NCBI RefSeq assembly: GCF_036588685.1
Contig: NC_086374.1
Location: 1,426,001-1,490,000 of the forward strand
Origin: Mytilus trossulus
Taxonomy: Eukaryota
Direction: 5' to 3'
Length of the DNA stretch: 64,000 nt
A program made the position numbers and the translations under genes. This document shows positions 2,571 through 59,255 of the stretch, in pieces. Position 1 is the stretch's first letter, and every line of letters begins with the position of its first letter. The notes under the pieces are model-generated. The model saw only the letters and a program-made list of their open reading frames with translations, was not told the DNA's origin and ran no database searches.

Positions 2571-3878
2571 TTACATTTTGCGGAGAACCGATTTTACTCC
2601 CTCCAAGATAATATTGTTTTTTCTTGAACCTATCTTTGCTGTACCAGATGGAGGTGTACGTGAGGAAATGATAGTTATGTTGTGTGCATCTATTTCTTTT
2701 AAATAGTCAAGTATCCTTGATCCAATTCCGTAGTCTCTGTCGTCATCGTACCCGTCGTGTGTATGTCCGTCTTTGTCTGTAAACCGATATACCAATGTGT
2801 TGTATGTACATGCAGATACTGGGCCCTGCATTATTTGTCGGGCAGCTTCACGAACTTCTGCGTATGTTGTGGTGACAGCAGCTGTGACACAATAAGTATG
2901 ACCATTGTCACTAACTTCATTAGAACTAGTTTGCTCAAATGTACCAAATTTAGACTTGTTACTGGCATCAAAAATAGCTAAAGCTTTTGGTGTTGACACT
3001 TTTTCCACATATTTAGATCCACTTTTGATGAAGAATAAACTGTTTCCTTTAATTTTAGTGCCCACATCTACTTCTTTGTACTCCTTTTGTTTTTGTACTA
3101 GTCTTTTTCTGTTTTCACGCATATCGTCTGGAAACTGTGGAGATCTGTATATGCCATTTAGTAACTCTTTGTTTTGTTTGCCTATTGTTCGTGCAGTGTT
3201 TATGACATGCTCCCGGTCATTGTAGTCATGGAATTTAACAACTATAGGACGGGTGCTGTTTTTATTTGTCTGGGTCCCTATTCTGTGGGCTCGGTCAATT
3301 TTAATATTTTCAGTTATTTTCAAAACATTTTTGAAAATCAATTTTAATTCCGCTATTACGTTTTCGTCATTTCGTTCATGAACCCCTATTACTATAGCAT
3401 TTTCCCTCATGCTGCGTTCAACCAGGTTTGCTATTTGACTTTGTTGACAATCAAGTCTAGTTTCTAAATGTACCACGTATGACTTCATTAGATTTAATTC
3501 CGTTGTCAGTTTTGTATTTTGATTTCTGACTTCGGCTATCATAGTTGTTTGGTCTTCAGTTTCTGTTGCCACAGCTTGAAGTCTGTCTTCAATGCCATCT
3601 TTGGAGTATATGTCATTTTTAATACCATGTATTTCTTCATTTTGGTTTTCAAATTTTATTATAAGACTGTTTAATGTTTGTTGTATGCCTACTATGCCAC
3701 TTAGAAGTTTGTTATTAAATGTTTGATCCTCAGAGTATTCACCGAGGTTTTGTTCGAGTGAGCTCTCTGTCTCCGTCATGTTAGTATCCGCCATTTTTAT
3801 ACCTGTGGTTTGTTTACTATTAAAAGTTTTTGTCTCTATTTCTCTTTCACGTTTACGAGTATTTTGTTTTTCACTCAT
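2571..3878 (-). CDS. LINE ORF1p: coiled coil + L1-type RRM/CTD + C-terminal IMPACT/YigZ (UPF0029)-like domain; likely start is the ATG at 3794 (MADTN)
   Basis: 435-aa ORF with a heptad-rich N-terminal half and L1 ORF1 motifs (RENAIVIGVHE, IDRAHRIG, RPIVVKF, PQFPDDMRENRKRL). The last ~115 aa have an IMPACT-like pattern (TYNTLVYRF..DDDRDYGIGSRILDYL..NITIISSR). Confidence 0.88.
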   Translation of the reverse strand: MSEKQNTRKREREIETKTFNSKQTTGIKMADTNMTETESSLEQNLGEYSEDQTFNNKLLSGIVGIQQTLNSLIIKFENQNEEIHGIKNDIYSKDGIEDRLQAVATETEDQTTMIAEVRNQNTKLTTELNLMKSYVVHLETRLDCQQSQIANLVERSMRENAIVIGVHERNDENVIAELKLIFKNVLKITENIKIDRAHRIGTQTNKNSTRPIVVKFHDYNDREHVINTARTIGKQNKELLNGIYRSPQFPDDMRENRKRLVQKQKEYKEVDVGTKIKGNSLFFIKSGSKYVEKVSTPKALAIFDASNKSKFGTFEQTSSNEVSDNGHTYCVTAAVTTTYAEVREAARQIMQGPVSACTYNTLVYRFTDKDGHTHDGYDDDRDYGIGSRILDYLKEIDAHNITIISSRTPPSGTAKIGSRKNNIILEGVKSVLRKM

Positions 3879-4602
3879 TACCTTTATTCATTACTATCAA
3901 AGTAAGTTTGTTATGTGTTGGTTTCAGAAAAATTCACTGTTTCACCATGTTTAAGTTGAAATTATCAGGCAGGTCGAGCAGAGAGAAAAAAACCTCAACC
4001 ATTCATTTCCAAGGGCAGATAATTATTCATATAAAAGTTTATTGAAATCCCGATAAGTATGATAACCTTGTTTTTTCATTATGTATGGATTCTTTTCTCT
4101 TGTTTCATGTCACAGCTGGATATACATTTCATTATTGAAGACTTCTTTTTATATAGCCGATACGAACTAGTTTGATCTGGGTAATGTACAAGATATATGT
4201 CATTGATTGTCTGGTCGTTTGGGTTAGTCACGATCAACGTTCCACCCATGTCAAAAGTACACGTCTTTAATTTCAATCAACAAATCATATTTACAATCTG
4301 CTTTAAATCTGGACTTGGATAAGTAGTTAATTTTCCATCTCTTGAGCACTTCTGTTTTTACTGTTATTAATAGATATATTGGTTCTGTTACACTCCTGTC
4401 ACATGTTATAAAGGCTATAGTTGAGCATTCGAACACAGGTTTAGCCACACTACATTTAACTATAATTCAGTGGTTATTGTTCGTCATAAATCAGAAAGTG
4501 TTTTCTTTTTAATATTTTTTTAATTTAGATTTTTTTATTGGTTCACATTTTGTCAGGTGGTCTTCTTTTGTAGCTGTATTTGTTATAGTTGATGGTCGTA
4601 CG

Positions 4603-4752: not shown

Positions 4753-5669
4753 TGTACGCTGACATATGGATGCTAAATTTATAGAAAGATTAATCTAAAC
4801 AATATTAAAAAAAATGGAAACAAAATGATTTTCTCACCAGGAGAAAAATACACTGCATTTGTCTTAAACTTGGATTAAAAGTTAACTGAAAATACACATT
4901 CGAATCTCGAACATTTCACTGGTTGGTTTGTGAGTGATCGTCCTCGTAACATTAAAAGCAAGTAACATGAAATCACAAAAACAATCTTATAAGATATATA
5001 ATGTTATTATTGTAATGTAATGATTTTCAGAAATTACAAGAAGGTGTATTTGAAGATGCTGCCTGTCAAAGTCCAGAAGTTTTGGTAAGTTCAAAATGTA
5101 AACATTATGAGAACTTTATATATAAAAACAATTATGCATATAAGAAAAGGATGTGCAGTTAATTTATTCTTATATGAGGATGCTACTTTATCTGAGTTAA
5201 AACTTCGAGCATATTGGTAAGTATATTGCATTAGTGCTAAATCGCCTCAGTGGTCTCCTTACAGCGTATGTATACAAGCTGTGACAAACAAAAGACTTAA
5301 AAAACGAAGGTTTTTTTACAACACTTTTCAGCTTTTGCAAAGATAGCGTTACTTTAGAATAAGAGAACAGACAGGTCGACTCGCGGTTCAAATAATGTAT
5401 ATCAGAGTAGAGTAAGAGCAAAGGCTGGTGGTCGGTTAAAATAAAATATATTAGAGTAGAGTTATATAACATTCTGTTATTCGCACACTTCTTTATTTTG
5501 AACAAGAATTACATCAGGTTACATATCTTACACTTCTTCAACTTGTGACAACAATGATACATGTTTTAAAGTATGTTAGTTCAATCTGATCAATAAAATT
5601 AACACATGAATTATGTTAATAAAACTAGTATCACACTAACGTTGATAGTTCAATGAATCCCCATGTTAC

Positions 5670-7704
5670 TTTATGTCAAAAGAAACTTTATGACATGTCA
5701 AAAGAAACGTTATGACATGTCAAAAGAAATGGTATGACATGTCATTGGAAATGGCATGATATGTCAATAGGAATGATATGACATTAAAACGAATGGTATG
5801 ACATATGAATAGGAACAGTTTGACATATCAATAGGAATGTTATAGAATGTTATGACATATCAATAGGAATGGTATGACATGTCAATAGGAATGGTATGAC
5901 ATATCAATAGCAATAGTATGACATGTCAATAGGAATGGTCGGAAATGTCAATAGCAATAGTAGGACATGTCAATAACAATAGTATGACATATCAATAGGA
6001 ATAGTAGAACATGTCAATAGGAATGGTAGAACATGTCAATAGCAATAGTATGACATATCAATAGGAATGGTAGAACATGTCAATAGAAATAATATGACAT
6101 ATCAATAGGAATGGTAGGACATGTCAATAGGAATGGTATGACATATCAATAGGAATGGTAGGACATATCAATAGGAATGGTAGAACATGTCAATAGAAAT
6201 AATATGACATATCAATAAGAATGGTAGGACATGATATCAATAGGAATGGTAGGACATATCAATAGGAATGGTAGGACATATCAATAGGAATGGTAGAACA
6301 TGTCAATAGGAATGGTAGGACATGTCAATAGGAATGGTATGACATATCAATAGGAATGGTAGAACATATCAATAGGAATGGTAGGACATGTCAATAGGAA
6401 TGGTATGACATATCAATAGGAATGGTAGAACATGTCAATAGGAATGGTAGGACATGTCAATAGGAATGGTAGGACATATCAATAGGAATGGTATGACATA
6501 TCAATAGGAATGGTAGAACATATCAATAGGAATGGTATGACATATCAATAGGAATGGTAGAACATATCAATAGGAATGGTAGAACATGTCAATAGGAATG
6601 GTAGAACATATCAATAGGAATGGTAGGACATGTCAATAGGAATGGTAGGACATATCAATAGCAATGGTAGTACATGTCAATAGGAATGGTATGACATGTC
6701 AATAGGAATGGTAGAACATGTCAATATGAATGGTATGACATATCAATAGGAATGGTAGGACATGTCAATAGGAATGGTAGGACATATCAATAGGAATGGT
6801 ATGACATATCAATAGGAATGGTAGAACATATCAATAGGAATGGTATGACATATCAATAGGAATGGTAGAACATATCAATAGGAATGGTAGAACATGTCAA
6901 TAGGAATGGTAGAACATATCAATAGGAATGGTAGGACATGTCAATAGGAATGGTAGGACATGTCAATAGGAATGGTAGGACATATCAATAGAAATGGTAG
7001 GACATGTCAATAGGAATGGTATGACATATCAATAGGAATGGTAGGACATGTCAATAGGAATGGTAGGACATATCAATAGCAATGGTAGTACATGTCAATA
7101 GGAATGGTATGACATGTCAATAGGAATGGTAGAACATGTCAATAGGAATGGTAGGACATGTCAATAGGAATGGTATGACATGTCAATAGCAATGGTAGGA
7201 CATATCAATAGCAATGGTAGTACATGTCAATAGGAATGGTATGACATGTCAATAGGAATGGTAGAACATGTCAATAGGAATGGTAGGACATGTCAATAGG
7301 AATGGTATGACATATCAATAGGAATGGTAGGACATGTCAATAGGAATGGTAGGACATGTCAATAGGAATGGTAGGACATGTCAATAGGAATGGTAGGACA
7401 TGTCAATAGGAATGGTATGACATGTCAATAGGAATGGTATGACATGTCAATAGGAATGATATGACATGTCAATAGCAATGGTAGAACATGTCAATAGGAA
7501 TGGTAGGACATGTCAATATGAATGGTAGAATATGTCAATAGGAATGGTATGACATGTCAATAGCAATGGTAGAACATGTCAATAGGAATGGTAGGACATG
7601 TCAATATGAATGGTAGAATATATCAATATCAATGGTAGAATATATCAATAGCAATGGTAGGATATGTCAATAGGAATGGTATGACATATCAATAGCAATG
7701 GTAG
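5670..7704 (+). repeat. 22-bp satellite, block 1 (consensus GACAT(G/A)TCAATAGGAATGGTA(G/T))
   Basis: 22-nt period checked (GGAATGG at 7321 and 7343); ~90 units; degenerate left edge. Confidence 0.97.
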
Positions 7705-7920
7705 TGTCGGTGATTTAGAGACAGTTTAACTTACGCGTCAAACGTTAACACTACTTTTAACGCCGTTTTCCATTCACATTGTTAACGTCATCATTATCTT
7801 CTGTTAACGTTGTGCTATTGTTATGTATCATGTTGCTATATAGAGTTGAGATTATACGATCAAACGAACCAGACGTTGTTTTACTGCCTGTCTAGACTTT
7901 TAGTTAACCCATCCGTCACA
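7705..7920 (+). repeat. BEL/Pao 5' LTR
   Basis: TGTCGG...CGTCACA; matches 14392-14607. Confidence 0.97.
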
Positions 7921-10155
7921 TTGGTGCTGCGACCAGAGGATATAATGACGAAAAAGAAAGCCATTCGAGTGGGCCATCGAGGAGCCGCGAGGAGATTAAT
8001 TTCAAAGATTGAAGAGGAATTAGAGAAAGAAACAACACAACGCGACGAAATAGAAAGCCTATGTGAAACCTTGAAGAAAAAGAGGGATATTCTTTCGGAA
8101 CTTGATAATGAAATATTAGAGGAGATTGCAGAGGAAAACATGAAAGCAGAGATAGAAGACTCAGATCGGTATGTTTTAGATATAGAACGGATTTTGACAA
8201 AAGTACGCAATTCATCAAGTTCAAAACAGAAAAATAAATCAAATGAAACTAGCTCTAATCAGAACTTAAATCCAAATGCAGCAGATTTTGTTTTCATCAA
8301 CTCCACATCTACATGTAATACTCCACATCCCATGCAGAATAATGATATGCAATACAGATCGTCAATGAGCGCAACAAATTCTAGCATCTACCACAAGCTA
8401 CCAAAATTGAATTTACCATATTTAATGGCAATTTGTTAAACTGGCAACCTTTCTGGGATGCGTATCAATCAACAATACACGATAACCAAACATTAACAGA
8501 CGTGCAGAAATTTACGTATTTGCAAAATCATATTCAGGGAATAGCCGCGCAATGTATCGCCGGTTTACCACTCACAAGTGCAAATTACTATCAAGCCGTT
8601 TCAATACTGAGAGAGAGGTTTGGTCAGAACCACAAAATCACGAACGCATATATTCAGAATTTAATTGATTTACCCGCACCGAGGTCAAACGCAGACAGTT
8701 TGAGAAACTTTTCCGACAGAATTGAGTGTAGCATACGCGGATTAGAATCGTTAGGAACAAACGAGAGTACATTTGGAGCCATTCTTACGCCTATTATATA
8801 CAATAAATTGCCGTCCGACGTACGAAAAAACATAACCCGAGATCGCGGAAACGACGACTGGGACATCGAATCATTGAGAACAGCAATAAAGAGGGAAGTA
8901 TGCGTACAGGTCGCAGGACAATCTACAGGTCAAAGTAATGAAGATTTAGAAATTTTACCGACCGCTTCGTTTATTGCCGAAACATTTCCAGGAAAGAACA
9001 GGAAACAGTCACGTAAGAAATGTTTATTTTGTGAAGAATCCCATCATCCAAATACATGCAAAAACGTGAAAGATGTTGAGAAACGAATTGAAATTGTGAA
9101 GCGAAAAAAGGTATGTTTTAACTGTTTCGAAAGTCATAGAGTAGCTGAATGTAAATCAGAATTTAAATGCCGCCAGTGCGGAAAGAGACATCACACGAGT
9201 ATACATGTACAAGTACATAACACAGAACCAAAGAGCTTGACCGAAAGCCAGTATAATACACAAAAGACCGTAGCACATACTGCCGTAGAGGAAACGCCAC
9301 TAGAGCTAACCACATCATTGCATTCTACTGTTACTGCACATACAGATGTTTTACTGAAAACTGCCGTAACTCCAGTTTGGTCCGAAAATCGATCGATAAT
9401 GACAAATATTTTACTTGACGAGGGAGCACAGAATTCATTCATAACTGAAGATTTAGCTAGAAAATTAGAAATTGAGTCCACCGAAAAGATAGCACTGAAA
9501 ATATCTGGATTTGGAGGAAACGAAGGACAAGTTCGTCATCTTGATAAAGCAAACATAGCTATTGAAACAGTTGACAATCAAAGAATAGAAATTGAAGTAA
9601 TAATTGTACCGAAAATTGCCGCTCCTATTCAGACAAAATCACAAAAGGAAATCAAAGCACTGTCATACTTACGTGGTTTACGACTCGCACATCCGATATG
9701 CGCAGAAGACAAGTTTAACATATCTTTATTGATTGGCGCAGACTATTACTGGTCAATAGTTGAAGATGAAATAATAAGAGGAAATGGACCGACCGCAGTT
9801 AAGTCGAAAATTGGTTACCTCTTGTCGGGACCCGTACTTACTAAGAACGGAAGTACTTCAAAACAGTCAGCAATGCTGAATATTTTGACTGATCACAGAG
9901 CCGTTGTTTGCGACTTGGAAAAGTTTTGGAACTTAGAAGCGTTGGGGGTTTCAGGAAGCGATACCATTAAAAGTCAGTCTGAAGTTGTACGAGAATACGG
10001 AGAAAAGTCTATAATACTAGAAAATGGAAAGTACACAGCTAAGTTACCATGGAAACCAGATTTCCTTCCGCTGCCGCATAACTTGGAATTGGTTAAACAG
10101 AGGACAGGAAGCGTTATTAGACGTCTAGCAAACAAACCTGATTTATTAAAAATAT

Positions 10156-10560
10156 GTACCAATTATCAGGTTGTCTGCATGTTAATATCGTAAAATATCA
10201 GCTGCGAGACATAATATTAAGCTTTTTGTCGAGTAAGCGCAGCGAACGAGATCAAAAAGCCTTCATATTATTTCGAGCAGCTGATATTTTACAATATTAA
10301 TATGCCGATAACCTAATAATCGATTTATCGGGCTGCATTTGCGTCTTTTGGAAGTATTGTCTTAGTTTCATCAGCAACCGGAAGTTGACTTGATAAGTTC
10401 GGGGCAAACTTATCAACGTCGGTTCAAACATTATGACGTCGCTGATATGCCCGGGTCAAAGTTATTAAGGCCAGGTCAACGTATTTGACGTCACAAAGCC
10501 GTGATATGGAGTTTTATTAAGAGCTGAGCAGATTGATATAGACAGTTGGACGACCGATAA
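10156..10560. mobile_element. 405-bp non-autonomous hairpin-bearing element nested in BEL pol
   Basis: Removing it restores KPDLLKI-Y-GDIIREQERRHFIEKV. Long imperfect inverted repeat 10162-10320 centred on GCGCAGC; no obvious TSD. Confidence 0.85.
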
Positions 10561-12939
10561 ATGGAGATATCATAAGGGAGCAGGAGAGGAGACACTTTAT
10601 TGAAAAGGTTGAGGAAACAAAACTTCCTACCGATCGACCCGTGCACTATATCCCGCATCTATCCTTCCAAGGAATCATCTACTACGCCAATACGCATTGT
10701 TTATGATTGTAGCTGCAAAGATGGAAGAGATAATCCAAGTCTAAATGAATGCTTAGAATCACACCCACCTGTTATGAATGATATTACGGGAATACTTATG
10801 AGATTTCGCGCTAAGAAATATGCTACAACATCAGATTTAGAAAAGGCATTTCTACAAATACAGCTCGACGAGAAAGACCGAGATGCAACGAGGTTCTTAT
10901 GGCTTAGCGATCCTACAAACACATCAAGTCCGCTAATAACATATCGCTTCAAGTCCGTACTCTTCGGAGCTACATGTTCGCCATTCATTTTGAGCGCCAC
11001 ACTTCTCAAGCACTTTAAAGAAAATCCGGGGAAACTTTCAGATACACTTGAAAATGGGTTATATGTGGACAACATTTTAACTAGCTTTGATAACGAAAAT
11101 GACGTAATAGATTATTACAGGAGATCGAGAGAATTACTTATGAAAGGCGGATTCAACCTACGCTCATGGAATTCAAATAGTCCAAAATTACAAGAAATCG
11201 CTAGCAAAGAACAAACCTTAGACAAAGATGAGCTTACTAAAATTCTTGGTATGCAATGGAACGCTAAATCGGACAAGCTGTTTTATCAAAGTAACACGTT
11301 CGAGATGGACAAAAAAGGAAAACTGACTAAAAGATATATTTTACGGCAATCATCCAAGATTTTCGATCCGTTAGGACTATTAAGCCCAGTTACTGTAAAA
11401 GCGAAAATCTTTATGCAATCACTTTGGAAGCTAAATTTGGAGTGGGACGAAATATTACCGGAAGATATCCAATCAAAATGGATATTAATTTCACGAGATC
11501 TAGCATCGAGCTTAGAAACAGAGATTCATCGAAGTACTCAAACACAGAACGAGCATAACAGAAAATTACCAACTCTTCATGTATTTACCGATGCTTCAAC
11601 TCATGCGTACGGCGCATGCGCGTACATCTTGTATGACAGAAAACCAACAATAGTAATGGCAAAGAATCGAGTTGCGCCTATCAAGACTATAACTTTACCA
11701 AAACTAGAGCTTATGGGGGCTGTAATTGGAGCAAGACTTGCTGATCATATCTGCAAAAACTTTCCAGAAACTTTCAGTGAAATACAATTTTGGAGTGATA
11801 GTCAAATCGTACTTAGTTGGCTTTCATCCGTAAAACCACAGAGACAATTTATCAAAAACAGAATTGAAGAAATTAAAAGTTTGTGTGGAGATAATGTATG
11901 GAGATACTGCCCTACGAAAGACAATCCCGCAGATCTACTTACACGTGGTATAACATCTGAAGAACTGCAACAGAACGAAATATGGTTTAGTGGACCTAAA
12001 TGGTTAAACAGCAAAGAAGATTGGCCGACATGGAACGGAAACAATGTAACGTCTAGTGTATGTACAACAATATCGGAGAACGATGACAAAATTGAAACTA
12101 TGGAGAATAATCAAAATGTACGTATTGGTATAGGAGAAATCATAGATATCGAACGGTACAATTCTTATAGAAAACTAACCCGCATTACCGCATATGTAAT
12201 GAGATTCGCAACAAACTGCAAAGCAACAGAAACTGAACGAAAGAAAGATTTGTTACGTAGTGATGAAATTAAAAATGCAAAATTCCTATGAATAAGATAT
12301 ACACAAGGTAAAATATTTAGTGACAAAATAAATTGTATAGATAATTCTACAAAACGTAAAACACTTGTGCGACAATTAAAGCTCTTTCTAGACGAAAAGC
12401 AATTATTACGATGTGGTGGCCGCCGAATAGACAATGCGACAGTAGGAGAAACAGTCAAGTTTCCATATCTGTTACCGGCAAAGGACCGTCTCACACATTT
12501 GATAGTGTTAGAAGCACATGAGAATACACTACATTCAGGAATAAATATCACTCTAGCATACATACAACAAACATTTTGGATTCCGAAATTAAGACAGTGC
12601 GTCAAATCTATATTGATGAAATGTGTAACGTGCCGAAAAGTAATCGGAAAATCTTATCCCGCACCAGAAATTCCACCATTACCAAAAGAGAGAGTTCAAG
12701 ATGCCACACCCTTTAGCATCACCGGTGTAGACTTCACAGGTGCGTTAACGACAAGAAACAGACACAACGAAGAATCGAAGGTTTACATTTGCCTATTTAC
12801 ATGTGCTGTCACTCGAGCAGTACATTTGGAATTAGTTTACGATCTCAGCGAAGAATCTTTTTTATTGTGTTTCCGGAGATTTGTAAGTCGACGATCAGTG
12901 CCGAAAATTATGATGTCAGATAATGCGTTAACATTTAAA

Positions 12940-13477
12940 TATATATACCCATTAAATTTATATATCTCCCAATTGATACGATATTCCCGTGCTTGCATTT
13001 CCTATCATGATTTTCTTGATAGAGGGTTACTGCTCACAAGGAAGCTATTAAACCAAGAGTTCCAAATGGTGAAGTTGAAATCATCCCTTCGTAAATTTTA
13101 CGGACGCCATCACGAGTTGGTTGACCGTTATGGAATAACCGTTTCACAAATGATATCGGATATGTTCCTTACGTCGTAACTACAATCCCCTTCCCTTTCA
13201 TGAATTTGACCTACCGAATTAGACTATTTACCGGATTTGTAATCACATAAGCAACACGACGGGTGCCGCATGTGGCGCAGGATCTGCTTACCCTTCCGGA
13301 GCACCTGAGATCACCCCTAGTTTTTGGTGGGGTTCGTGTTGTTTATTCTTTAGTTTTCTATGTTGTGTCATGTGTACTATTGTTTTTCTGTTTGTCTTTT
13401 TCATTTTTAGCCATGGCGTTGTCAGTTTGTTTTAGATTTACGAGTTTGACTGTCCTTTTGGTGTCTTTCGTCCCTCT
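12940..13477 (+). mobile_element. 5'-truncated Penelope-like (probably Naiad-type) retroelement 3' end nested in BEL integrase
   Basis: Encodes YISQLIRYSRACISYHDFLDRGLLLTRKLLNQ (PLE-type RT thumb) plus 3' UTR. Flanked by TTTAAA at 12934-12939 and 13478-13483; removing it restores SDNALTFK-AASIEISRL. Confidence 0.85.
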
Positions 13478-14391
13478 TTTAAAGCTGCTTCAATCGAAAT
13501 TTCACGACTTTGCAATTCTAAAAAAGTTAAAGAAAATATTCAGAATTATGGCATTGAATGGAAATTCATTCCAAATAGAGCTCCATGGTTCGGGGGCATG
13601 TGGGAAAGAATGATTGGCTTAACAAAAACATCACTTAAGAAAGTATTAGGACGTGCACATGTTAACGACGAGACTCTAAGGACCGTATTAACAGAGATCG
13701 AAGCCACACTCAACGATCGACCAGTGACGTATATTTCAACAGATATCAGAGATCCGGAGCCGCTTACACCATCCCATCTTATACATGGACGAAGAATAAC
13801 AACTTTACCGTATGTATCGTCAAATAGTGCTATTGACAATCTAAATGTTTGTGAATTAACACACACAAACTTGAACAATCAAACGATACGACAGAGACAA
13901 TTGATTGAGAATTTCTGGACGAGATGGAAAGGAGAATACCTTACTTCATTGCGAGAATATCACCAAAGAGCTGGAGTCGACGTTCGGAAGATTAAAGAAG
14001 GCGATGTCGTTCAGATACACGACGAATCAAAGCGCGTACATTGGAAACTTGGAGTTGTGCAGGACACTATTAAAGGCAAGGACGGCTTAGTACGCGTCGC
14101 TATGGTGCGTACCAAATCAGGAATTACAAATCGACCCGTGACGAAACTCTACCCATTAGAAGTCAACAGCATGGACTATTATCTGAGACGAAGTGAACGA
14201 AGAAACTAACGTGTGTGAACAGACTTGTTAATTTTTCTTATTTGTGAAAAGACTGTAAATTCAAAGAGTTTTTTACGTAATTTAATAATTTAATCCTTTT
14301 TTCATTATTTGTGAGATCAATCTATTTTTGTTCTTTCCGCATGCCACTACATATCACAGCTAATGGACATTGCATCTGGTGGCCCCGAGTA

Positions 14392-14607
14392 TGTCGGTGA
14401 TTTAGAGACAGTTTAACTTACGCGTCAAACGTTAACACTACTTTTAACGCCGTTTTCCATTCACATTGTTAACGTCATCATTATCTTCTGTTAACGTTGT
14501 GCTATTGTTATGTATCATGTTGCTATATAGAGTTGAGATTATACGATCAAACGAACCAGACGTTGTTTTACTGCCTGTCTAGACTTTTAGTTAACCCATC
14601 CGTCACA
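14392..14607 (+). repeat. BEL/Pao 3' LTR
   Basis: Matches the 5' LTR; preceded by GGTGGCCCCGAGTA. Confidence 0.97.
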
Positions 14608-16285
14608 GGTAGGACATGTCAATAGGAATGGTATGACATATCAATAGGAATGGTATGACATATCAATAGGAATGGTATGACATATCAATAGGAATGGTAT
14701 GACATGTCAATAGGAATGGTATAACATATCAATAGCAATAGTATGACATGTCAATAGGAATGGTAGGAAATGTCAATAGCAATAGTAGGACATGTCAATA
14801 ACAATAGTATGACATATCAATAGGAATGGTAGAACATGTCAATAGGAATGGTAGAACATGTCAATAGGAATGGTAGGAAATGTCAATAGCAATAGAAAGA
14901 CATGTCAATAACAATAGTATGAAATATCAATAGGAATGGTAGAACATGTCAATAGGAATGGTAGAACATGTCAATAGCAATGGTAGAACATGTCAATAGC
15001 AATAGTATGGCATATCAATAGCAATGGTAGGACATGATATCAATAAGAATGGTAGGACATGATATCAATAAGAATGTTATGACATATCAATAGGAATGGT
15101 ATGACATATCAATAGCAATAGTATGACATGTCAATAGGAATGGTAGGAAATGTCAATAGCAATAGTAGGACATGTCGATAACAATAGTATGACATATCAA
15201 TAGGAATGGTAGGACATGATATCAATAGGAATGGTATGACATATCAGGTAGGACATGTCAATAGGAATGGTAGGAAATGTCAATAGCAATAGTATGACAT
15301 ATCAATAGCAATGGTAGGACATGTTAATAGGAATGGTATGACATATCAATAGGAATGGTAGGAAATGTTAATAGCAATAGTATGACATATCAATAGCAAT
15401 GGTAGAATATATCAATAGGAATAGTAGGACATATCAATAGGAATGGTAGGACATGTTAATAGGAATGGTATGACATATCAATAGGAATGGTAGGACATGT
15501 CAATAGGAATGGTAGGACATGTCAATAGGAATGGTAGGACATATCAATAGGAATGGTAGGACATGTCAATAGGAATGGTAGGACATGTCAATAGGAATGG
15601 TAGGACATATCAATAGCAATGGTAGGACATATCAATAGGAATGGTATGACATGTCAATAGGAATGGTAGGACATGTCAATAAGAATGGTAGGACATATCA
15701 ATAGGAATGGTATGACATGTCAATAGGAATGGTAGGACATGTCAATAGGAATGGTAGGACATATCAATAGGAATGGTAGAACATGTCAATATGAATGGTA
15801 TGACATATCAATAGGAATGGTATGACATGTCAATAGGAATGGTAGGACATGTCAATAGGAATGGTAGGACATATCAATAGGAATGGTAGGACATATCAAT
15901 AGCAATGGTAGGACATGTCAATAGGGATGGTAGGACATATCAATAGCAATGGTAGTACATGTCAATAGGAATGGTATGACATGTCAATAGGAATGGTATG
16001 ACATGTCAATAGGAATGGTAGGACATGTCAATAGCAATGGTAGTACATGTCAATAGCAATAGTATGACATATCAATAGGAATGGCAGGACATGTCAATAG
16101 GAATGGTAGAACATGTCAATAGGAATGGTAGGACATGTCAATAGGAATGGTAGAACATGTCAATAGGAATGGTATGACATATCAATAGGAATAGTAGGAC
16201 ATGTCAATATGAATGGTATGACATATCAATAGGAATGGTAGGACATATCAATAGGAATGGTATGACATATCAATAGGAATGGTAG
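14608..16285 (+). repeat. 22-bp satellite, block 2
   Basis: Same unit as block 1, ~76 copies. Confidence 0.97.
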
Positions 16286-19200
16286 TGTTATATCCGTCAT
16301 TGACTTCTTATTTAGTTACGCCACGCGTATGAATATGTTATTGTTAATTACACACATACTTGATTAAAGTAGTTCCTAAATGTAAACAATGGTTGCTTGA
16401 TGCTTTACATCTCCCCCTCGGCCAATACGTAACAACTGGCGACGAGAACGAACCACAGCAACAATGAACATTACACAATATGAAACAAACGTATAGACAT
16501 TGGTAAAATCGAAGCAAACACTGAACATTTGCATGAAAATAGCTAAATACCGAATTGATAAGCCCGATTCTTTGTTCGACTCCACGTGTGTTCCAAACAA
16601 AGGAATCTGCGGTACATCACATACATCATGGCAACATTTGGTTTGATAGGGAAAATTGACCCATTTGATGAAACAATTGAACCCTGGGACTCGTATGTTG
16701 AACGATTAGACCAATATTTTGTCGCAAATGAAATCGACGGAAACAAAAAGGTTCCTGCCCTACTTTGCCTGATAGGGGGGAAACTATACTCGTTGTTGAG
16801 GGACTTAACATTTCCGGACAAACCATCAGAGAAAACATTCGACGTATTAGTTAAGCTATTAAAGGATCATTTAGCTCCCAAACCGCTACAAGCATCAGAA
16901 CGATTCAGATTTGATAAAAGGGACCAAAAAGAGGGGGAATCAATACAAGATTATGTTGCACAATTACGAAAACTCTCACTGCATTGTGGTTTTAATGCAG
17001 ACCTCAAAGAAAAGTTAAGAGACAGGATAGTTTGTGGCCTTAAAAACCCGAACATTCAGAAAAGGTTATTGTCAGAAAAAGACTTGACATATGATAAAGC
17101 AGTAGATATTGGTGTGGCTATGGAGACCGCATCCAAAGATGCAACCGAATTACAAGCAAAACATAGAACTGAGGGGGTAAACAAAATGAGTGCAAGAAAA
17201 TGTAAATTTCAACCACAGCATAACAAAGGGAACTCTCGCTGTTACAGGTGTAACAACACAGGACACTCACCTTTCGATTGCAAATTCAAGAACGCAATCT
17301 GTCACAACTGTAACAAAACAGGCCACATAAAGAAAGCCTGCATGTCAAAATCTAATAAGAAACCTCAATCAAGAAAATTTGAAAACAAGAAATCCGTACA
17401 TGCTTTAGAGGAAGATTCTGATAGTGATAACTGCATCGCTAGTCTAGAAACATTTGAAATTAATAACGGTAAATCGTCAAAAGATGTCATGTGGTTAAAA
17501 CCTACGGTTGAAGGAGTAACGCTTAAAATGGAGCTCGACACTGGATCAGCAGTATCGGTCATATCACAGGCAGATTTTTCAAAGAGGCTAGGTCATGTTA
17601 AACTAGTCGAAGCTACAATTACATTACAAACTTACTCAGGAGAAAGTATAAAACCTTTAGGGTGTGCAAATGTCAAAGTCCATTATAAAGGAGAAACAAA
17701 TGTGTTGCCACTATATGTAGTACCTAAAGGAGGACCGCCTTTGTTCGGAAGGGAATGGCTAAAGCATATTAAACTTGACTGGAATGAAATTAGGGAGGTT
17801 CATGGTATAAATCAAAAGAAAACAGGGGAAGTAATTAAAGATTTACAAAATAAATACAAAGATGTATTTAAAGATGAACTAGGAACAATAAAGGGAATAA
17901 AAGCCAAATTGTCTCTAAAAGACAACAGCAGTCCAAAGTATATTAAAGCTAGAACTGTGCCGTTTTCTTTGCGTGAAAAAGTAGAAGCTGAATTGGACAG
18001 ATTAGAAAAAGAAGGAACATTGAATAAAGTTCAACACAGTGAATGGGCTACACCTATAGTTCCAGTATTAAAGAAAAATGGAAATGTAAGAATATGTGGA
18101 GATTTCAAGGTTACGTTAAATCCCATGTTAAATGTTGATCAATACCCGCTTCCAAAAATTGATGACATTTTTGCAAATTTGAATGGAGGAATACAATATA
18201 CAAAGATGGACTTAAAGCAAGCCTATTTACAACTTGAAGTAGATGAAGACTGTAAAGACTTGCTAACTATAAACACTCACCGTGGACTATACCGCTATAA
18301 CCGTATGGCGTTTGGAATTGCATCAGCTCCTGCAATATGGCAGAGAACTATTGAACAAATATTAAATGGAATTCCTGGAACTCAATGTTTATTGGATGAC
18401 ATGATAATTACAGGATCGACAGACGAAGAACATTTGAACAATTTAGAGTCTGTACTGAAAAGACTAAGTCAGTATGGACTAAAGGCTAATATAGACAAAT
18501 GTGAATTTTTTAAGGACAGTGTAACATGTTGTGGACATGTAATCGACAAACATGGACTCCACAAAACACCAGACAAAATTGAAGCAATAAGGAACGCTCC
18601 AGCACCGGAAAATGTGTCTCAGCTTAAGTCTATTTTAGGATTGATAAATTACTATGCCAAGTTTTTACCAGACCTATCAGCGACTTTAAGTCCTCTACAT
18701 AATCTTCTGCGTAAAGTTATAAAACATGGAGGTGGACAAAGGAATGCCAAGAGGCGTTCGACAAGGTGAAAGACTTAGTCACCTCAGATATGATATTGAC
18801 ACATTTTAATCCAGAGTTACCTGTCACTCTAGCATGTGACGCATCACCTTATGGTTTGGGTGCCGTCATATCTCATCGATATCCAAATGGATCAGACAGA
18901 CCGATAGCTTTCGCCTCTAGATCACTAGCACCAGCAGAGAAAAATTATTCACAAATAGACAAGGAAGCGTTAGGAATAATTTGGGGAATTAAGAAATTCC
19001 ATTCCTACCTATACGGGCGAAAATTCAAATTGATCACAGACCATCAGCCATTAATATATATATTCAACCCTCAGAAAGGAGTATCAGTTACAGCGTCAGC
19101 TCGTTTGCAAAGATATTCACTTTTCTTGTCAGGATATGAATATGAGATCGAATTCCGAGGAACTGCTAAACATGCAAACGCAGACTCGTTATCTAGACTT

Positions 19201-21062
19201 CCACTAAAAAGTACTGAAATAGACACTTCGTTGAAAATGGTGGAATCTTTCCATATTGCTCAAATGGAAGCAATTCCCGTTTCGAACAAACAAGTTCAGC
19301 AGGAAACAAGAAATTACCGTGTTTTGGGACTTATAACTACCTTCACACAGGATGGCTGGAACACTATTCACAAAGATGGTGAATATGCGCCATATTATTC
19401 TAGGCGAAATGAACTGACAGTACATCAGGGATGCCTTATGTGGGGCGTAAGAGTGATAATTCCTAATAAACTTCGTAGTCAGGTATTAGGACAGATCCAT
19501 GAAGGACATCTTGGTGTCGTTAAAATGAAAGCATTGGCCCGAAGTTTTGTTTGGTGGCCAGGAATCGACCAGGATATTGAAAAGTTGGCAAAAGCCTGTA
19601 ATGGATGTCAACCTAAATCAAAACTCCCCGAAAGGAGCACCGCTTAATGCGTGGGAATGGCCAAGCAAGCCATGGGACAGAGTTCATATTGATTTTGCAG
19701 GACCATTTTTAGGGTCTATGTTTCTTATCATGGTTGACGCACATTCAAAGTGGCCAGAAGTAATAAAAATGAAAAACATTACATCAGAAAGTACAATCAA
19801 TGTTTTGCGAACAATCTTCTCAAGGAACGGAATACCATCACGTATTGTGAGTGACAATGGACCACAATTTACATCACAGGAATTTGAAAATTTCATGCAA
19901 TTAAATGGTATTAAACACATCAGAAGTGCGCCATATCACCCATCGACAAATGGTTTTAAAAGCAGAACGTTTTGTGCAAACTTTTAAGCAAGCTATGAAA
20001 TCTAGTTCAAATGATTCAGGAACCGTTTCGAAAAAACTAGCACAGTTTTTGTTAGCATACCGCAACACTAAACACAGTACAACGAATGAAACGCCAGCAA
20101 AACTTATGATTGGAAGAGATTTGAAAACAAGGATGAATCTTTTAAGACCGAACATTGAAAACCAAGTTCAAACTAAACAGATGGAAATGTGTGACCGTAG
20201 AAAAACTTACCAACGTGAATTTAATGATGGACAATCAGTTGTAGTCCGTGATTACCGGAACAAAAATAAATGGACACCAGGGACGATATCAACGAAAACT
20301 GGACCTGTGTCGTATCAAGTACAAATCGATCCTACAACAATATGGAGAAGACATGCCGATCAAATTATCGATTCAAACATAACTAACACTGAACAATCAA
20401 TTTCAGAACAAACTACATTGGACAATCATATAAGTAGTGAACATGTCAACCCAACAGAAAATGAACACCGTCCACAAAAATCTGAAGAACACAAATCAAA
20501 TCAACCAACAACACCAGTAAAGCGTTATCCAACAAGGGAAAGGAAATCCAACAAGTTGAAAGATTTTATATATAATTGACGCACAGTGTTGTGGGCATAA
20601 TAATCCCACGTGCATCAGTTGAAACCTTTAGGGTTTCCGTATTTTTAGTGTAGTGTTAATTATATCTCGTAGTAAACGTAGTTAGTGAATTAGTGACTTA
20701 GAATAGACAAAACCGAACAGTATTCACATAAGACAGTATTCATTTTATTTTTCATAAGGTGCTATATGAACATTAATTAATACTCAGAACTATTAAAGAT
20801 ATAATCATAATATCAGACTTTTAAAGATAAAGAAGAACTGTTTTAATTTCTATTTCATTTATATATCTAGTCAATTTTAAAGTATTCACTTGAAAAAATC
20901 TAGGGAAGAGAAATGTTATATCCGTCATTGACTTCTTATTTAGTTACGCCACGCGTATGCATATGTTATTGTTAATTACACACATACTTGATTAAAGTAG
21001 TTCCTAAATGTAAACAATGGTTGCTTGATGCTTTACATCTCCCCCTCGGCCAATACGTAACA
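16286..21062 (+). mobile_element. Full-length Ty3/Gypsy LTR retrotransposon (Mag-like)
   Basis: 149-bp LTRs at 16286-16434 and 20914-21062 with one mismatch (GAATATG/GCATATG). TSD GGTAG at 16281-16285 and 21063-21067; PBS TGGCGACGAG (tRNA-Ser(GCU)-type 3' end) at 16437; PPT AGGGAAGAGAAA at 20902-20913. Confidence 0.97.
16628..20579 (+). pseudogene. Gypsy gag-pol (Gag with 2 CCHC, PR, RT, RNase H, IN) with three frameshifts
   Basis: MATFGLIGKIDPFD; CYRCNNTGHSPFDC and CHNCNKTGHIKKAC; LDTGSA; RICGDFK and LLDD; ACDASPYGLGAV; HEGHLG..C..C, HIDFAG, SDNG, AERFV. Frameshifts near 18720, 19615 and 19957. Confidence 0.93.
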
Positions 21063-22553
21063 GGTAGGAAATGTCAATAGGAATGGTAGGACATGTCAAT
21101 AGGAATGGTAGGACATATCAATAGGAATGGTATGACATATCAATAGGAATGGTAGGACATATCAATAGGAATGGTATGACATGTCAATAGGAATGGTATG
21201 ACATGTCAATAGGAATGGTATGACATATCAATAGGAATGGTAGGACATGTCAATAGGAATGGTAGAACATGTCAATAGGAATGGTATGACATATCAATAG
21301 GAATGGTAGAATATGTCAATATGAATGGTATGACATGTCAATAGGAATGGTAGGACATGTCAATAGGAATGGTAGGACATATCAATAGGAATGGTATGAC
21401 ATGTCAATAGGAATGGTATGACATGTCAATAGGAATGGTAGGACATATCAATAGGAATGGTATGACATGTCAATAGGAATGGTATGACATGTCAATAGGA
21501 ATGGTAGGACATATCAATAGGAATAGTAGGACATGTCAATAGGAATGGTATGACATGTCAATAGGAATGGTATGACATATCAATAGGAATGGTAGGACAT
21601 GTCAATAGGAATGGTAGGACATGTCAATAGGAATGGTAGGACATGTCAATAGGAATGGTAGGACATGTCAATAGGAATGGTAGGACATATCAATAGGAAT
21701 GGTATGACATGTCAATAGGAATGGTATGACATGTCAATAGGAATGGTATGACATATCAATAGGAATGGTAGGACATGTCAATAGGAATGGTAGAACATGT
21801 CAATAGGAATGGTAGGACATGTCAATAGGAATGGTAGAACATGTCAATAGGAATGGTATGACATATCAATAGGAATAGTAGGACATGTCAATATGAATGG
21901 TATGACATATCAATAGGAATGGTAGGACATATCAATAGGAATGGTATGACATATCAATAGGAATGGTAGAATATATCAATAGCAATGGTAGGACATGTCA
22001 ATAGGAATGGTATGACATATCAATAGGAATGGTAGAATATGTCAATATCAATGGTAGAATATATCAATAGCAATGGTAGGATATGTCAATATGAATGGTA
22101 TGACATATCAATAGCAATGGTAGGACATGTCAATAGGAATGGTATGACATATCAATAGGAATGGTAGAATATATCAATAGCAATGGTAGGACATGTCAAT
22201 AGGAATGGTATGACATATCAATAGGAATGGTAGAATATGTCAATAGCAATGGTAGAATATATCAATAGCAATGGTAGGACATGTCAATATGAATTGTATG
22301 ACATATCAATAGCAATGGTAGGACATGTCAATATGAATGGTATGACATATCAATAGGAATGGTAGGACATATCAATAGCAATGGTAGGACATGTCAATAG
22401 GAATGGTATGACATATCAATAGGAATGGTAGAATATATCAATAGCAATGGTAGGACATGTCAATATGAATGGTATGACATATCAATAGCAATGGTAGGAC
22501 ATGTCAATATGAATGGTATGACATGTCAATAGGAATGGTAGGAAATGTCAATA
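21063..22553 (+). repeat. 22-bp satellite, block 3
   Basis: Same unit, ~68 copies; ends ~180 bp before the exon at 22737. Confidence 0.97.
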
Positions 22554-23325
22554 TTTGCTTGACCTTCAGAATATTTCATACTTAAATTTACTGCTTATTG
22601 AGAGACTTCGTTGATTCATACTTAAGCATTAAATGTCCACACCCAGATTGTTAAAAGAAGAAGAAAGAAGTATATTTTAGAGCAATCAATAGTAGACTTG
22701 ATAAAATTAAAACTTCTTTTTTATTTATATTTTCAGATGACTAAGAGCGTACTCTGTGTAGAGGCAAAATGTCCTAGCCATAGTGAACTCCTGTTGAAGT
22801 ATGTAGTTATTGTTAACATTATCACTCAAACAAACAGTGATTATATTGCTTCTTTTGTAGTTTTATTTAGAATGTAAAATCGTTGAAAAGACTTAGCTGT
22901 AAAGTGCAATTTTTCAACACTTTACAACCCTATAAAACTTCAAAATCTGGGAAAATATGCAACGATTAACTAACGTTTTAAAGGGTAAAAAAGGGGGGGG
23001 GGGTTACCTTGATCTCATTATCGAGTGTTAAAACTATTTTTTTCTATAGTGTGTTCGCTCTTCCTTCTTTAATTATTTTTTACAAAATGTTTCTGTGAAT
23101 GCGTTATTTATCCAACAGCACCTATCATTCCTCTGTTATTTAAATGTTTTAACTATTTCAGTTTCTCGCCATGGCAATGGTTCAGTCCAAACGTAAGTAA
23201 AATCCAGACAAACTGCCACTTACCAGCAGACACGTGTGATGAAGATGCCACCTTTGGACCAACAGTAACCACTTCCACTTATATGACTACAGATGAACCG
23301 ATGACATCCACTGTGCCAACACAAA

Positions 23326-23594
23326 CAACTGTTATTCCTGGGATGGCTAACGATGCATTAACTGGGTCTGGTAATGGAGAGGACAGTAATACAGTAAGTA
23401 TATATTACACCTATTAACAGTTATTCCTGGGATGGCAAACAATGCGTTAACTGGGTCTGGTAACGGAGAGGACAGTAACACAGTAAGTAAATATTACACC
23501 TATTGACAGTCATTCCTGGGATGGCTAATGATGCATTAACTGGGTCTTGTAATGGAGAGGACAGTAACACAGTAAGTATATATTACACCTATTA
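23326..23594 (+). repeat. 3 x 89-bp tandem duplication of an exon 3' end plus its splice donor
   Basis: GTAAGT at 23394, 23483 and 23572 (period 89). Confidence 0.92.
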
Positions 23595-24344
23595 TGTCTT
23601 TAGTCTTTTGTCCGTCCTTCAAACTCACGTCTGTGAACTCTAGCTCACCTGGCATAAAACATCATTACAAGATCTTCAAATAATTCAGTATGAGAGAAAT
23701 AGTTAACAGGCTCTTTAAGGATTTGTTTTCTCTGAATGATGATGTTTACTAATGTTTTGGCCTCAAACTAATGTAGACAGAGAGAAGGTTCAAACTACAC
23801 AAAAATGCATGATCACCAAACTGATATCCACAAATAAGCTCATCCTGCCTAAAACCATCAGGGGACACCTTATACGAGTTATTGCCATTACATGACGATA
23901 TTCACTTATTGCGTAAGGTGATTTACAAAATACAAACAAAATGCCTCAAGGGAACTTGTAAAATGCATAACTAAGCACCAAAATAGGATAATGAAAAGAA
24001 TGACAAAAATTGTCCAGAAGCTTGTTGAAAAATTTACAGAGGCTACATTGTCGTTTACAAATAAATGAATAAGGAGATATTGTGCAGCCTTTAACAATGA
24101 GACAAACCTATACCGCATATATTGTATAAGCTATAAAGGGTCTCGGCAATACAACATGTGGAACACTTCAAGATAGAAAACCAAGGGTTTGAATTATAAT
24201 ATTTATATGACTTCATAATGCACCAAAAAATCAACATCAGAAGTAATATCACTACTGAATCCAATTCAATTTATTTGAATAAAATATTGTTTAAACTACT
24301 GAATTAAGTAATTTACTATATATTTTGTATATTTTCCGTTTTAG

Positions 24345-24509
24345 AATGATGGATCTTTCATTTCCGAAATGACGATGATTTTAGGAGTTTGTGCTGGTTT
24401 AATAATAGCAGTATCCGGTTTCTTTGTATTGATATATTCTTGTTGGAGAAAACACGGATTGAGGAGAATAGACAAGGTTGGATACACACCACTGAGGAAT
24501 CAGGACTGA
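24345..24509 (+). CDS. Terminal exon: TM helix and cytoplasmic tail with a YxxL motif
   Basis: TTTTAG acceptor; MILGVCAGLIIAVSGFFVLIYSCW followed by RKHGLRR and GYTPL; TGA at 24507-24509. Confidence 0.8.
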   Translation, partial: NDGSFISEMTMILGVCAGLIIAVSGFFVLIYSCWRKHGLRRIDKVGYTPLRNQD

Positions 24510-33682: not shown

Positions 33683-36600
33683 TACGGAAGCCGATAAGGG
33701 CCATTCAAAAAAAAAATTTTATGTCGTTATTACGACATAGCATGTCGTAATTTCGACATAAGATGTCGTTAAAACGACATCGCTATGTCGTAATTTCGAC
33801 ATATCATGTCGTAATAACGACATCGCTATGTCGTAATTTCGACATATCATGTCGTAATAACGACATCACTATGTCGTTTTAACGACATAGCTATGTCGTA
33901 ATAACGAGCTATATTTGAAAGAATATGTATTATGATTGGCAAGAGACTAAATGACATAGAAATTAACAATTATACGTCATCATAATGTCCCCGATAATTA
34001 TAAAAGCCCCCGCATGGTCAGCTATAAAAGAGGGAAGAAAGCTACCAGAGGGAGAGTCCCCGGAATGCTGTGTGGCAGACAGTGTTATTATTTAATTATT
34101 AGCTCCCTTGGTAAAACTCCAAATTTCATATTTAATGTATTATATTGTTAAATAATTTACATGAAGCTTAATAAGTATATATTTGTTAATTGCATAGCTT
34201 TTGTTATTTGAATTCATTGGTTGAAGATATTTATTTATATTGTAAAGTTTAATATTTGCATCGTCGCAAAATCTTTGGTTACCTTCTTTGGATACCTTCA
34301 GTGAGAAACTTATATATGTTATAGATACCAATTTCGATTATCTTAGCCCACTGTGCTAGGGTTGTACAGTCAAACAAAGTCGGATAGATATTAACAAGTT
34401 ACCGGTCGTAGATTAGCTATGCTGTCACACATGTTGGAAGAATGAAATGTGGAATTAGTAGAGGACTGAAATTGTACAACCAAGTCAAGCCAAGCTTTCC
34501 ATCTCCCTTTAAATTAGCGCAAACTACATGGCTTCTTGGTATAAGGGTGTATTGTGTGTATTGATAGCTCTATTTCTACTTTCAAACGTTGGGCACGCGC
34601 GATGTTCCTACAAACCCTAGTATTTAAAAAAGAATCTTCGAAATTTCATCCTCAAAACAAAATAAAAATGTTAGAAAACACGAACCAATATTAAAGCAAA
34701 TTCAATATATGTTTTGAATTATGTTTTGACAGCTCTTGATCATCTCCTAAGTAATATCTGGTATATTTGAGGATTAAAAAAAGAAAGCTATGTGAAAAAA
34801 ACGGATGTCCCCATCTAACGTTACATTTATGAAAAACTGTTTTAACTCTTATGTATAGTGATCTATTTCTTATTCTCTGATCTTCTTGATTCTTGACAGC
34901 AACAACGACATGTGTCGGTTCTTTGTGGCGTTAAAGCCGTTATTTTACCAAATTTCATTTAACTCGACTGCATATTATAGTAGAAAATGAATAAGAATAG
35001 TAAGACAATAATAATATCTAACAAAAGTACAAATATTTGCTTCATGTGAGTTCAGATATTGCTGATTCAATAAAATCTTCTGACTACACAGTCGTTTTTC
35101 AAACGGTAGCCATTTTGTCAAAGTTGATATTTCATTTTTCAAAGCAGTTTAAGGCGTATTTTTTTTTTTATAATTGATCAAAACAAAAGTTAAATATACG
35201 AAGAGTAAAAAATGCCAAGATTCTTTCCTTATTAACTACATATTTGGGTCTTAAAGGAATAAAATGATTCGATACATTACAAAACGGAAGGCAATTTTTC
35301 CAAATGTCTGAAAACGTCTAAAATCCCAAAGACGCTAATTTCCGACGTTAAATGTGCTAAAGTTTCAATTAAATATTTATGATAATTAAAACAAATCGTG
35401 TTATGAAATTTGGAGAAAGATGTTAATGATTGCTGCCGAAAAAAAATTAGTGTATGTTGCTAAAGACTCAGCCCGGGGAAATAGGTTCGACACAGGTTAA
35501 ATTTTGCAATTTTTATTAATTGTATAGCTTTTAACGATTTATTTAAAAGAATTTGGAAATGGGGGGAAAATCCCATTTTGTAAAATAAATTGAAATTTGT
35601 GTTACGGAAGTACTCCGAAATAGATCATTTAAAGTCGTCACTTCAGTTAGGTGCAATCACCAATATCAAAACACTTAATACCAGTTCACGGAATGTTTTA
35701 CTTCGCGATTTGTCCTGCTATTTCGTGATGACAGTAATTCCTGTACTAGCGAAGCCGAAACTTTTCGTCAATATAAACTTGTGCATGAAATGGAGGTAAT
35801 TGAAAGATGAATCCCAAACTGCAACGAAAACCGTTTCATCGAATTAAACAAAAACGGGATTATATTTTTGTTTGCCGTTTTCGCGGACGACCCAGGAGTA
35901 GATTACTTCCCAAGCCAAGGTTCAAGTAATAGAAGGGGTGTATTTGGACAACTTAAGTGTCAGGGAAATTACAATTCTATTCAAATTTAACCAAGGGTAA
36001 AAATGTTCGATTTACTTGCAGAGTGTCAGATATATTTGTATTAGGGATGAATTAAGATATAGAAATTTTACAATGACAGATGATATGCAACTTGAAAGTT
36101 AAACATCCTGTGATAAAAAAAAATATGAGAACCGTATACATGTACTTCCGTCCCATCTTTCCTTCCTACATTACTTGCGACAGTACTGCATTTTAAGTTG
36201 AAATAACTTAAAGGGTAAACATTATTATATCGATTTCCACAACTCGAGGTAATTTTTTGATAAAATGACATCACAAAAAGAACAGAACCAGAATCAACCA
36301 ACAATATAAAAAACCGAATAAAACTTAAGTGAAACGTGTTGTGGGAATATCGTGCCCAACGTTTGAAAGTAGCATTAGAAGCCATGTAGTATGCACTTAT
36401 TTTGAGGGAGATGGGATGCTTAGCTGTCTAGTTAGGCTCGCATATTCACATAGTAGTATCTCCCTAATCAGTCTGTAGAGCCATTTGACAACAGTTAATT
36501 TATTCACCCCAAATAGTTTTTAATAAAATATATAAGTTTCTCACTGAAGGTATTCAAAGAAGGTATCCAAAGATTTTGCGACGATGCAAATATTAAACTT

Positions 36601-37181
36601 AACAATATAAATAAATATCTTTAACCAATGAATTCAAATAGCAAATGCTATGCAATTAACAAATATATACTTATTAAGCTTCATGTAAATTATCTAACTA
36701 AAAATTATATAACAATAAAATGCATTCAATATGAAATTTAGAGTTTTACCAAGGGAGCTAATAATTGAATAATAACACTGTCTGCAACACAGCATTTCGG
36801 GGACTCTCCCTTTGGTATCTTTCCTCCCTCTTTTATAGCTGACTATGCGGGGGCTTTTCTAATTATTGGGGGCATTATGATGAAGTATAGTTGTTAATTT
36901 CTGTGTCATTTAGTCTCTTGGCAATCATTATACATATTCTTTTATATATAGCGATGTCGTTATTACGACATAGCGATGTCGTTATAACGACATAGCGATG
37001 TCGTTATTACGACATGATATGTCGAAATTACGACATAGCGATGTCGTTATAACGACATGTTATGTCGAAATTACGATATAGCGATGTCGTAATAACGACA
37101 TCTTATGTCGAAATTACGACATGCTATGTCGTAATTACGACATAAAATATTTTTTTTGAATGGCCCTTATCGGCTTCCGTA
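33683..37181. mobile_element. Non-autonomous IS3EU-like fold-back DNA transposon
   Basis: TACGG...CCGTA termini; 6-bp TSD GAAGGT at 33677-33682 and 37182-37187; subterminal palindromic ATGTCGTAATTACGACAT-type repeats. Inverted arms are closely similar for ~640 bp and traceable to ~930 bp; no transposase ORF. Confidence 0.88.
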
Positions 37182-59111: not shown

Positions 59112-59255
59112 NNNNNNNNNNNNNNNNNNNNNNNNNNNNNNNNNNNNNNNNNNNNNNNNNNNNNNNNNNNNNNNNNNNNNNNNNNNNNNNNNNNNNNNNN
59201 NNNNNNNNNNNNNNNNNNNNNNNNNNNNNNNNNNNNNNNNNNNNNNNNNNNNNNN
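59112..59255. other. Assembly gap (144 N)
   Basis: Run of N. Confidence 0.99.

Follow-up and report, generated by a model that had tools for sequence, protein, structure and literature searches.

Long terminal repeat (LTR) retrotransposons inside tandem arrays have been described in rice, where 2,258 SZ-22 insertions are spread over the whole CEN155 monomer with a broad 20-bp peak (10.1101/2024.07.28.605524), and in Arabidopsis, where Tal1 targets satellites via chromatin tethering (PMC11735389), according to the portions of these sources that deal with the elements. Here we analyzed a stretch of 64,000 nucleotides from Mytilus trossulus (contig NC_086374.1, positions 1,426,001 to 1,490,000; hereafter the window), in which a 22-bp-unit tandem array is interrupted by a BEL/Pao and a Gypsy LTR retrotransposon (Table 1). 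The locus resembles the two plant systems in that LTR elements lie within a tandem array, and SZ-22 shows a positional bias within its monomer. In contrast, SZ-22 and Tal1 occupy megabase centromeric arrays with thousands of insertions, whereas the present array is a 5-kb minisatellite, apparently intronic, with two insertions from two superfamilies. Among open-licence papers, we found no account of this repeat, nor of a minisatellite register common to LTR elements of two superfamilies; one literature match to "22 bp" (PMC5139131) concerns, in the part of the paper that names it, an unrelated repeat.

We found that the left flanks of both elements end in AATGGTAG and that the right flanks of both begin with GGTAGGA. 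The two insertions occupy the same array register in the same orientation, each with a 5-bp duplication of GGTAG. Since the array phase steps back by 5 bp across each element, this is a true target site duplication (TSD), and the TSDs are clean at all four junctions. The first-pass annotation of the window had claimed this identity of register, orientation and TSD for two unrelated, recent elements; its coordinates proved exact, the Pfam domain sets separate BEL/Pao from Gypsy, and the LTRs are near-identical (216/216 in BEL/Pao and 148/149 in the Gypsy). The sharing of one register in a 22-bp array by two unrelated LTR elements is thereby confirmed as a real observation.

The Pfam search gave matches in 8 of 11 frames, one of the eight lying outside both elements. 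In the BEL/Pao element the domains follow the order DUF1759, DUF1758, RVT_1, Peptidase_A17, Integrase_H2C2 and DUF5641, all above their curated cut-offs, and these BEL-specific domains, in gag-PR-RT-RH-IN order, are accompanied by TG...CA LTRs, a start resembling a primer-binding site (PBS) and a 5-bp TSD. The coding region is broken by a frame change near 8.4 kb, a non-coding gap at 10194-10575, an in-frame stop near 12290 and a nested repeat near 13.4 kb. This last repeat, 129 bp long (13353-13481) and nested in the integrase region, has 97.7% identity to 60806-60934 in the reverse direction, despite the identical LTRs of the element. A self-inverted stretch (10162-10320, 79.5%) at the non-coding gap between the frames is possibly a nested miniature inverted-repeat transposable element, and a fragment at 37591-38022, with 83% identity to the integrase region, represents an older relative. 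The BEL/Pao clades listed for molluscs in PMC6238403 are Sparrow, Sinbad, Surcouf, TAS and Suzu. No match to the BEL reverse transcriptase (RT) frame was found among genome contigs (0/28).

In the Gypsy element, RVT_1, RT_RNaseH, Integrase_H2C2 and rve scored above cut-off and a zf-CCHC match was obtained, together with a weak protease match below cut-off. The order protease (PR), RT, RNase H (RH) and integrase (IN), with integrase after RNase H, is that of Gypsy. Both elements are thus new members of known superfamilies. When the Gypsy RT frame was compared with metagenome contigs, six relatives were recognized among 130 pattern matches; none was found among viral contigs (0/7). Both LTRs and a readable TSD are present at two of the six loci, one is truncated by the contig start, and three have no LTR pair. 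A PBS-like TGG stretch follows the 5' LTR in the Gypsy as in BEL/Pao; the PBS-like sequence TGGCGACGAG is common to the Gypsy and its relatives L001, L004 and L005. Compared with L001, which has one frame of 1326 aa, the Gypsy reading frame switches three times. The two complete relatives with the same PBS, both distant and the only usable loci of the six, have non-array 5-bp TSDs, GATCC and TCAGG, not GGTAG. In its short LTRs, single frame and 5-bp TSD the Gypsy resembles the Mag lineage or C-clade, a placement that is presumptive. Among described bivalve elements, Steamer of Mya arenaria (PMC10663159) and MchSLE1 of Mytilus chilensis (PMC11046912) are, as far as the passages concerned describe them, likewise Gypsy elements of about 4.8 kb with short LTRs, a single gag-pol frame (seen here in L001) and a 5-bp TSD, their palindromic bias being family-specific. 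These are likenesses of description. The LTRs of MchSLE1 measure 185 bp and its PBS is of the tRNA-Asn type, as against 149-bp LTRs and another PBS here, and the Steamer motif CATN-5-NATG is not matched by the present Gypsy site.

The significance of the shared register depends on what LTR integrases prefer. The relevant passages of PMC3276498 describe LTR target motifs in general as low-information palindromes reaching beyond the TSD. With a palindromic motif as the rule, the shared orientation carries no signal and amounts to a coin flip. According to the same passages, the Drosophila Pao clade (roo, 3S18 and Max) makes 5-bp TSDs, as here, and Pao and the 412-clade Gypsy elements share such a motif, the four near-exclusions of which are passed by the observed site; in contrast, fly Gypsy TSDs are 4 bp long, as compared with 5 bp in the mussel Gypsy, and those passages do not involve tandem arrays, from which the present 22-bp setting differs. 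We applied the three Drosophila Pao matrices (PMC3276498, File S6), which are those of the fly and may not be those of the mussel, at every array position. Of the 44 combinations of register and strand, the matrices left 7.6-11.6 effective classes, and the observed register ranked third to fifth of 22 with 7-13% of the mass. Under the four-position exclusion rule seen in the Pao and 412-clade matrices, 7 of the 22 registers pass, including the observed one. The probability of agreement is therefore about 1/8 to 1/14 if both mussel families follow Drosophila Pao-type preferences, and the 1/44 put forward in the first-pass annotation holds if at least one family is register-blind. The full range is 1/8 to 1/44, for a single pair (n = 2) picked post hoc; by calculation, four same-register insertions would be required for p < 0.01 under a Pao matrix.

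We favor, with a probability of about 0.55, the reading that two independent, ordinary integrase insertions agreed by chance among the few registers allowed by a weak, shared local preference. Each integrase would read a low-information palindromic motif around the 5-bp stagger, which in a 22-bp repeat may leave about 5-7 usable registers, and the orientation of each insertion would be a coin flip; the array restarts described below may have come to lie beside the elements afterwards, through in-register unequal exchange or the joining of two alleles. This reading is supported by the canonical form of both elements, with TG...CA ends, PBS-like starts and a TSD of 5 bp, by the few effective classes left by the Pao matrices and the rank of the observed register, by the TSDs of the two Gypsy relatives, by the diverse BEL flanks in other samples and by the lack of a nucleosome-type 10-bp periodicity in the array. 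Once ordinary target preferences are allowed for, two insertions in a short repeat can be expected to agree in register about 1 time in 10, not 1 in 44. On the present evidence, the locus is a neat case in which two young LTR elements have entered a variable, apparently intronic repeat.

The insertion habit of the BEL family was assessed in other samples. We compared the BEL 3' LTR and short flanks with contigs of 4 of the 18 runs containing the stretch, which include mollusc metagenomes; the four runs come from four studies, the flank figures rest on 24 of 78 loose-end rows, and those for bridging pieces on 32 of 315. At least 21 contigs exit the LTR at its 5' end and at least 18 at its 3' end. 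The flank rows are mostly AT-rich blends with 0.48-0.61 agreement, in which the first TSD base is A and the last is T or C. Neither an array-like flank nor a flank ending or starting with GGTAG was found among these rows in the four runs. Since the flanks are diverse, AT-rich and non-array in 4/4 runs, the BEL family appears to insert widely; in these blended rows most copies are not inside the tandem array in any of the four runs. This rules out, for the rows listed, that BEL prefers GGTAG everywhere, and the family shows no favoring of the array, unlike the centrophilic SZ-22 and Tal1 as described in 10.1101/2024.07.28.605524 and PMC11735389 where these concern the two elements. The LTR bases at 14522 and 14529 of the window are replaced in nearly all of the depth of the four runs, and the four samples probably lack the window's BEL copy. 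No contig bridging the BEL 3' junction was found among the pieces listed, which is therefore uninformative and no sign of an artefact.

The array extends over about 5673-22553 and is split by the elements into three segments with about 230 units in total; Tandem Repeats Finder (TRF) counted 84, 76 and 68 units in segments A, B and C. Discounting both elements, it is about 5 kb long. No second array of this unit was present among the 42 TRF rows for the window; arrays of a palindromic 21/22-bp unit at 33720-33907 and 36948-37144 are unrelated to it. In the four runs, the summed depth over the array end was about 50-150 times that of single-flank contigs, a depth that is not a copy number but fits one or few loci better than a major satellite, and the array looks like a low-copy minisatellite. 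A search with the array as an exact degenerate pattern gave no matching stretch in either the viral or the metagenome contigs. Exon-like ag/gt segments on both sides, on the + strand, suggest from the sequence that the array and both elements are intronic and that the elements are sense-oriented. The putative host gene (5031-24457, +) has small Cys-containing exons, a Thr-rich stalk and a transmembrane-like exon near 24350-24450, and three 89-bp repeats at 23327-23594 duplicate an exon end plus donor site.

The order of unit variants along the array is head-core-tail, BEL/Pao, five units, head-core, Gypsy, core-tail. The array is a patchwork of duplicated blocks, the pattern of which restarts at both elements; this, like the internal breaks in both elements, had escaped the first-pass annotation. 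Over 5845-22553 the head-core-tail series occurs twice, and the second head is locally triplicated, with three 25-bp units. The BEL/Pao element sits in a gap of about 7 of 226 units between two modules (about 3% by chance), and the 200-bp left flank of the Gypsy recurs 5.7 kb downstream, a repeat equalled or exceeded at 1.8% of unit ends; the same edge tests were unremarkable at the other three element edges. The phase break at 15246/15247 may have arisen by simple deletion, or may be a scar left where an LTR element was removed. These edge patterns, which are modest and were noticed post hoc, suggest in-register unequal exchange, a join of alleles or, least likely, more than two same-register insertions.

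Table 1. Features of the array, its two LTR retrotransposons and the adjoining host exons (positions in the window)
Feature	Position	Strand	Remarks
Putative host exon upstream of array	5031..5084	+	ag|...|gt, open frame; chosen by eye
Segment A, 22-bp array	5673..7704	+	head-type, core, then tail-type variants; last bases are TSD copy 7700-7704
BEL/Pao LTR retrotransposon	7705..14607	+	gag-PR-RT-RH-IN order; coding region broken
BEL 5' LTR	7705..7920	+	216 bp, TG...CA; PBS-like TGG stretch from 7922
BEL 3' LTR	14392..14607	+	216/216 identical to 5' LTR
Segment B, 22-bp array	14608..16285	+	TSD copy 14608-14612 at start; head-type restart from about 14729; TSD copy 16281-16285 at end
Phase break, net -8 bp	15240..15257, at 15246/15247	+	left side ends CA; right side in register of both elements' right junctions
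200 bp directly left of Gypsy	16086..16285	+	exact repeat at 21770-21969
Gypsy LTR retrotransposon	16286..21062	+	gag(CCHC)-PR-RT-RH-IN order; three frame switches
Gypsy 5' LTR	16286..16434	+	149 bp, TG...CA; PBS-like TGGCGACGAG at 16437-16446
Gypsy 3' LTR	20914..21062	+	149 bp; 1 mismatch to 5' LTR (148/149)
Segment C, 22-bp array	21063..22553	+	TSD copy 21063-21067 at start; tail-type variants at end
Putative host exon downstream of array	22737..22798	+	chosen by eye

Several results weigh against chance agreement within a weak preference. The fly matrices fit mussel BEL only loosely, the BEL site scoring 0.2-3.4-fold over background, and do not rank the observed register at the top; of 21 mussel BEL 5' flanks, at least 4 have A as their last base, which the fly matrices nearly exclude (16/412), and on the 3' side the mussel BEL blends open with A where GGTAG has G, so that the consensus of mussel BEL is not GGTAG. 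An array-flanked BEL contig could also be hidden inside the blended rows. The Gypsy relative L005, one of two relatives, violates the exclusion rule, and the Steamer motif matches 2/6 positions at the observed register against a best of 3/6 in the unit, which excludes that motif as the explanation of the register. Should the Gypsy be indifferent to register, the probability of agreement remains 1/44. Furthermore, target preference by itself does not account for the same-register junction at 15246/15247 or for the two restarts beside the elements.

Part of this evidence is what pure coincidence predicts, in which neither family prefers the register and a 1-in-44 match was picked post hoc from a very large scan. 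In its favor are n = 2 in a scan of some 250,000 windows, a Steamer-type motif that gives the observed register no advantage, and an L005 site that violates the Pao rule. We regard such a coincidence as rather unlikely: the exclusion rule removes 15 of the 22 registers and spares the observed one, though this would happen by chance in about one case in three, and the third same-register junction is left unaccounted for. Another explanation is the phased landing pad proposed in the first-pass annotation, in which a protein on the GACATGTC palindrome, or DNA shape, would leave essentially a single bond in each unit open to LTR integrases of any kind, and insertions would be drawn to the array. 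The right side of the -8 bp junction falls on this bond, and the junction may be what remains of an element removed via CA microhomology, two superfamilies share register, orientation and TSD, two young full-length elements lie within 1.7 kb of host array, and a monomer-level register bias is known for one rice family, with a 20-bp peak in a 155-bp unit, in the portion of 10.1101/2024.07.28.605524 that reports it. However, the array has about four phase breaks, so that one same-bond match is not rare; in four other samples BEL is flanked by diverse sequences unlike the array; only some of the units carry the palindrome in perfect form; and a symmetric protein bound there would leave the orientation free. 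Nor is there a helical phasing signal in the array by sequence proxy: its WW-SS amplitude at 10.2-10.5 bp is 0.023-0.026, below the background mean of 0.063-0.064, and the 22-bp period slips by 1.6 bp per unit against a nucleosomal repeat of 10.2 bp, which over 147 bp adds up to a full turn. Because of this drift and the low amplitude, nucleosome rotational phasing is, on this proxy, an unlikely register selector and was rejected. Since the array looks like one or few loci by depth, which is no copy number, it could not serve as a genome-wide sink. What survives of the proposal is that local sequence or shape limits integration to few positions per unit, which is plausible, is known elsewhere and agrees with the passing of the 7/22 rule; the array as a sink with a single exposed position in each unit is unsupported rather than refuted, in view of the non-array BEL flanks, the apparently low copy number and the missing 10-bp periodicity, and we consider the full landing pad unlikely. 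An equally doubtful, stronger version is that the unit presents one bond chosen almost always by unrelated LTR integrases, that each insertion provokes in-register rearrangement at its edges, and that three to five same-register events are recorded here. If it were true, the array would report, naturally and repeatably, on a target rule that integrases share and on minisatellite turnover set off by insertion: the short repeat would isolate, on the same 22 sites per unit, a target choice common to two distantly related integrases, and integration would be tied to minisatellite expansion.

The restarts bear on two further explanations. The locus may combine two alleles, brought together either in the assembly or by a genuine unequal crossover, with BEL near one tail and the Gypsy in the other core, as the variant order and the position of BEL between the two modules would allow; BEL and Gypsy then need not share an array copy, which weakens the sink argument and leaves the register match still to be explained. 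Each element has several frame breaks despite near-identical LTRs, which would fit such a join, although long-read indel errors could do likewise, and the BEL 3' junction was not bridged by the contig pieces listed. We consider a join quite improbable, as no unique flank is duplicated, all four junctions have clean TSDs, and the near-absence of the LTR variants at 14522 and 14529 from the depth means that the missing bridge says little. Still more remote, in our estimate very improbable, is that each element is a hybrid from unequal recombination between two same-family copies at different units, which would hide up to four same-register insertions and hence imply a strong register preference. 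BEL at a tail-to-head restart and the recurrence of the Gypsy's left flank point in this direction. Against this, the tail-type alternation appears to run about one unit past BEL before the head type resumes, the two LTRs within each element match completely or almost completely despite polymorphism in the family, and an exchange stopping at large heterology would give the same picture with one insertion each.

Other features of the window lie outside the array and its elements. A 438-aa open frame at 2571-3887 (-) has a coiled-coil-like start and a weak UPF0029 match below cut-off, and presumably resembles proteins derived from open reading frame 1 of long interspersed nuclear elements. An assembly gap of 144 N bases at 59112-59255 adjoins a 23-bp array and a TTC run. 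A 66-bp tandem array with 99% identity was found at 44040-45235 inside a repeat, with a single-unit relative near 54459-54550.

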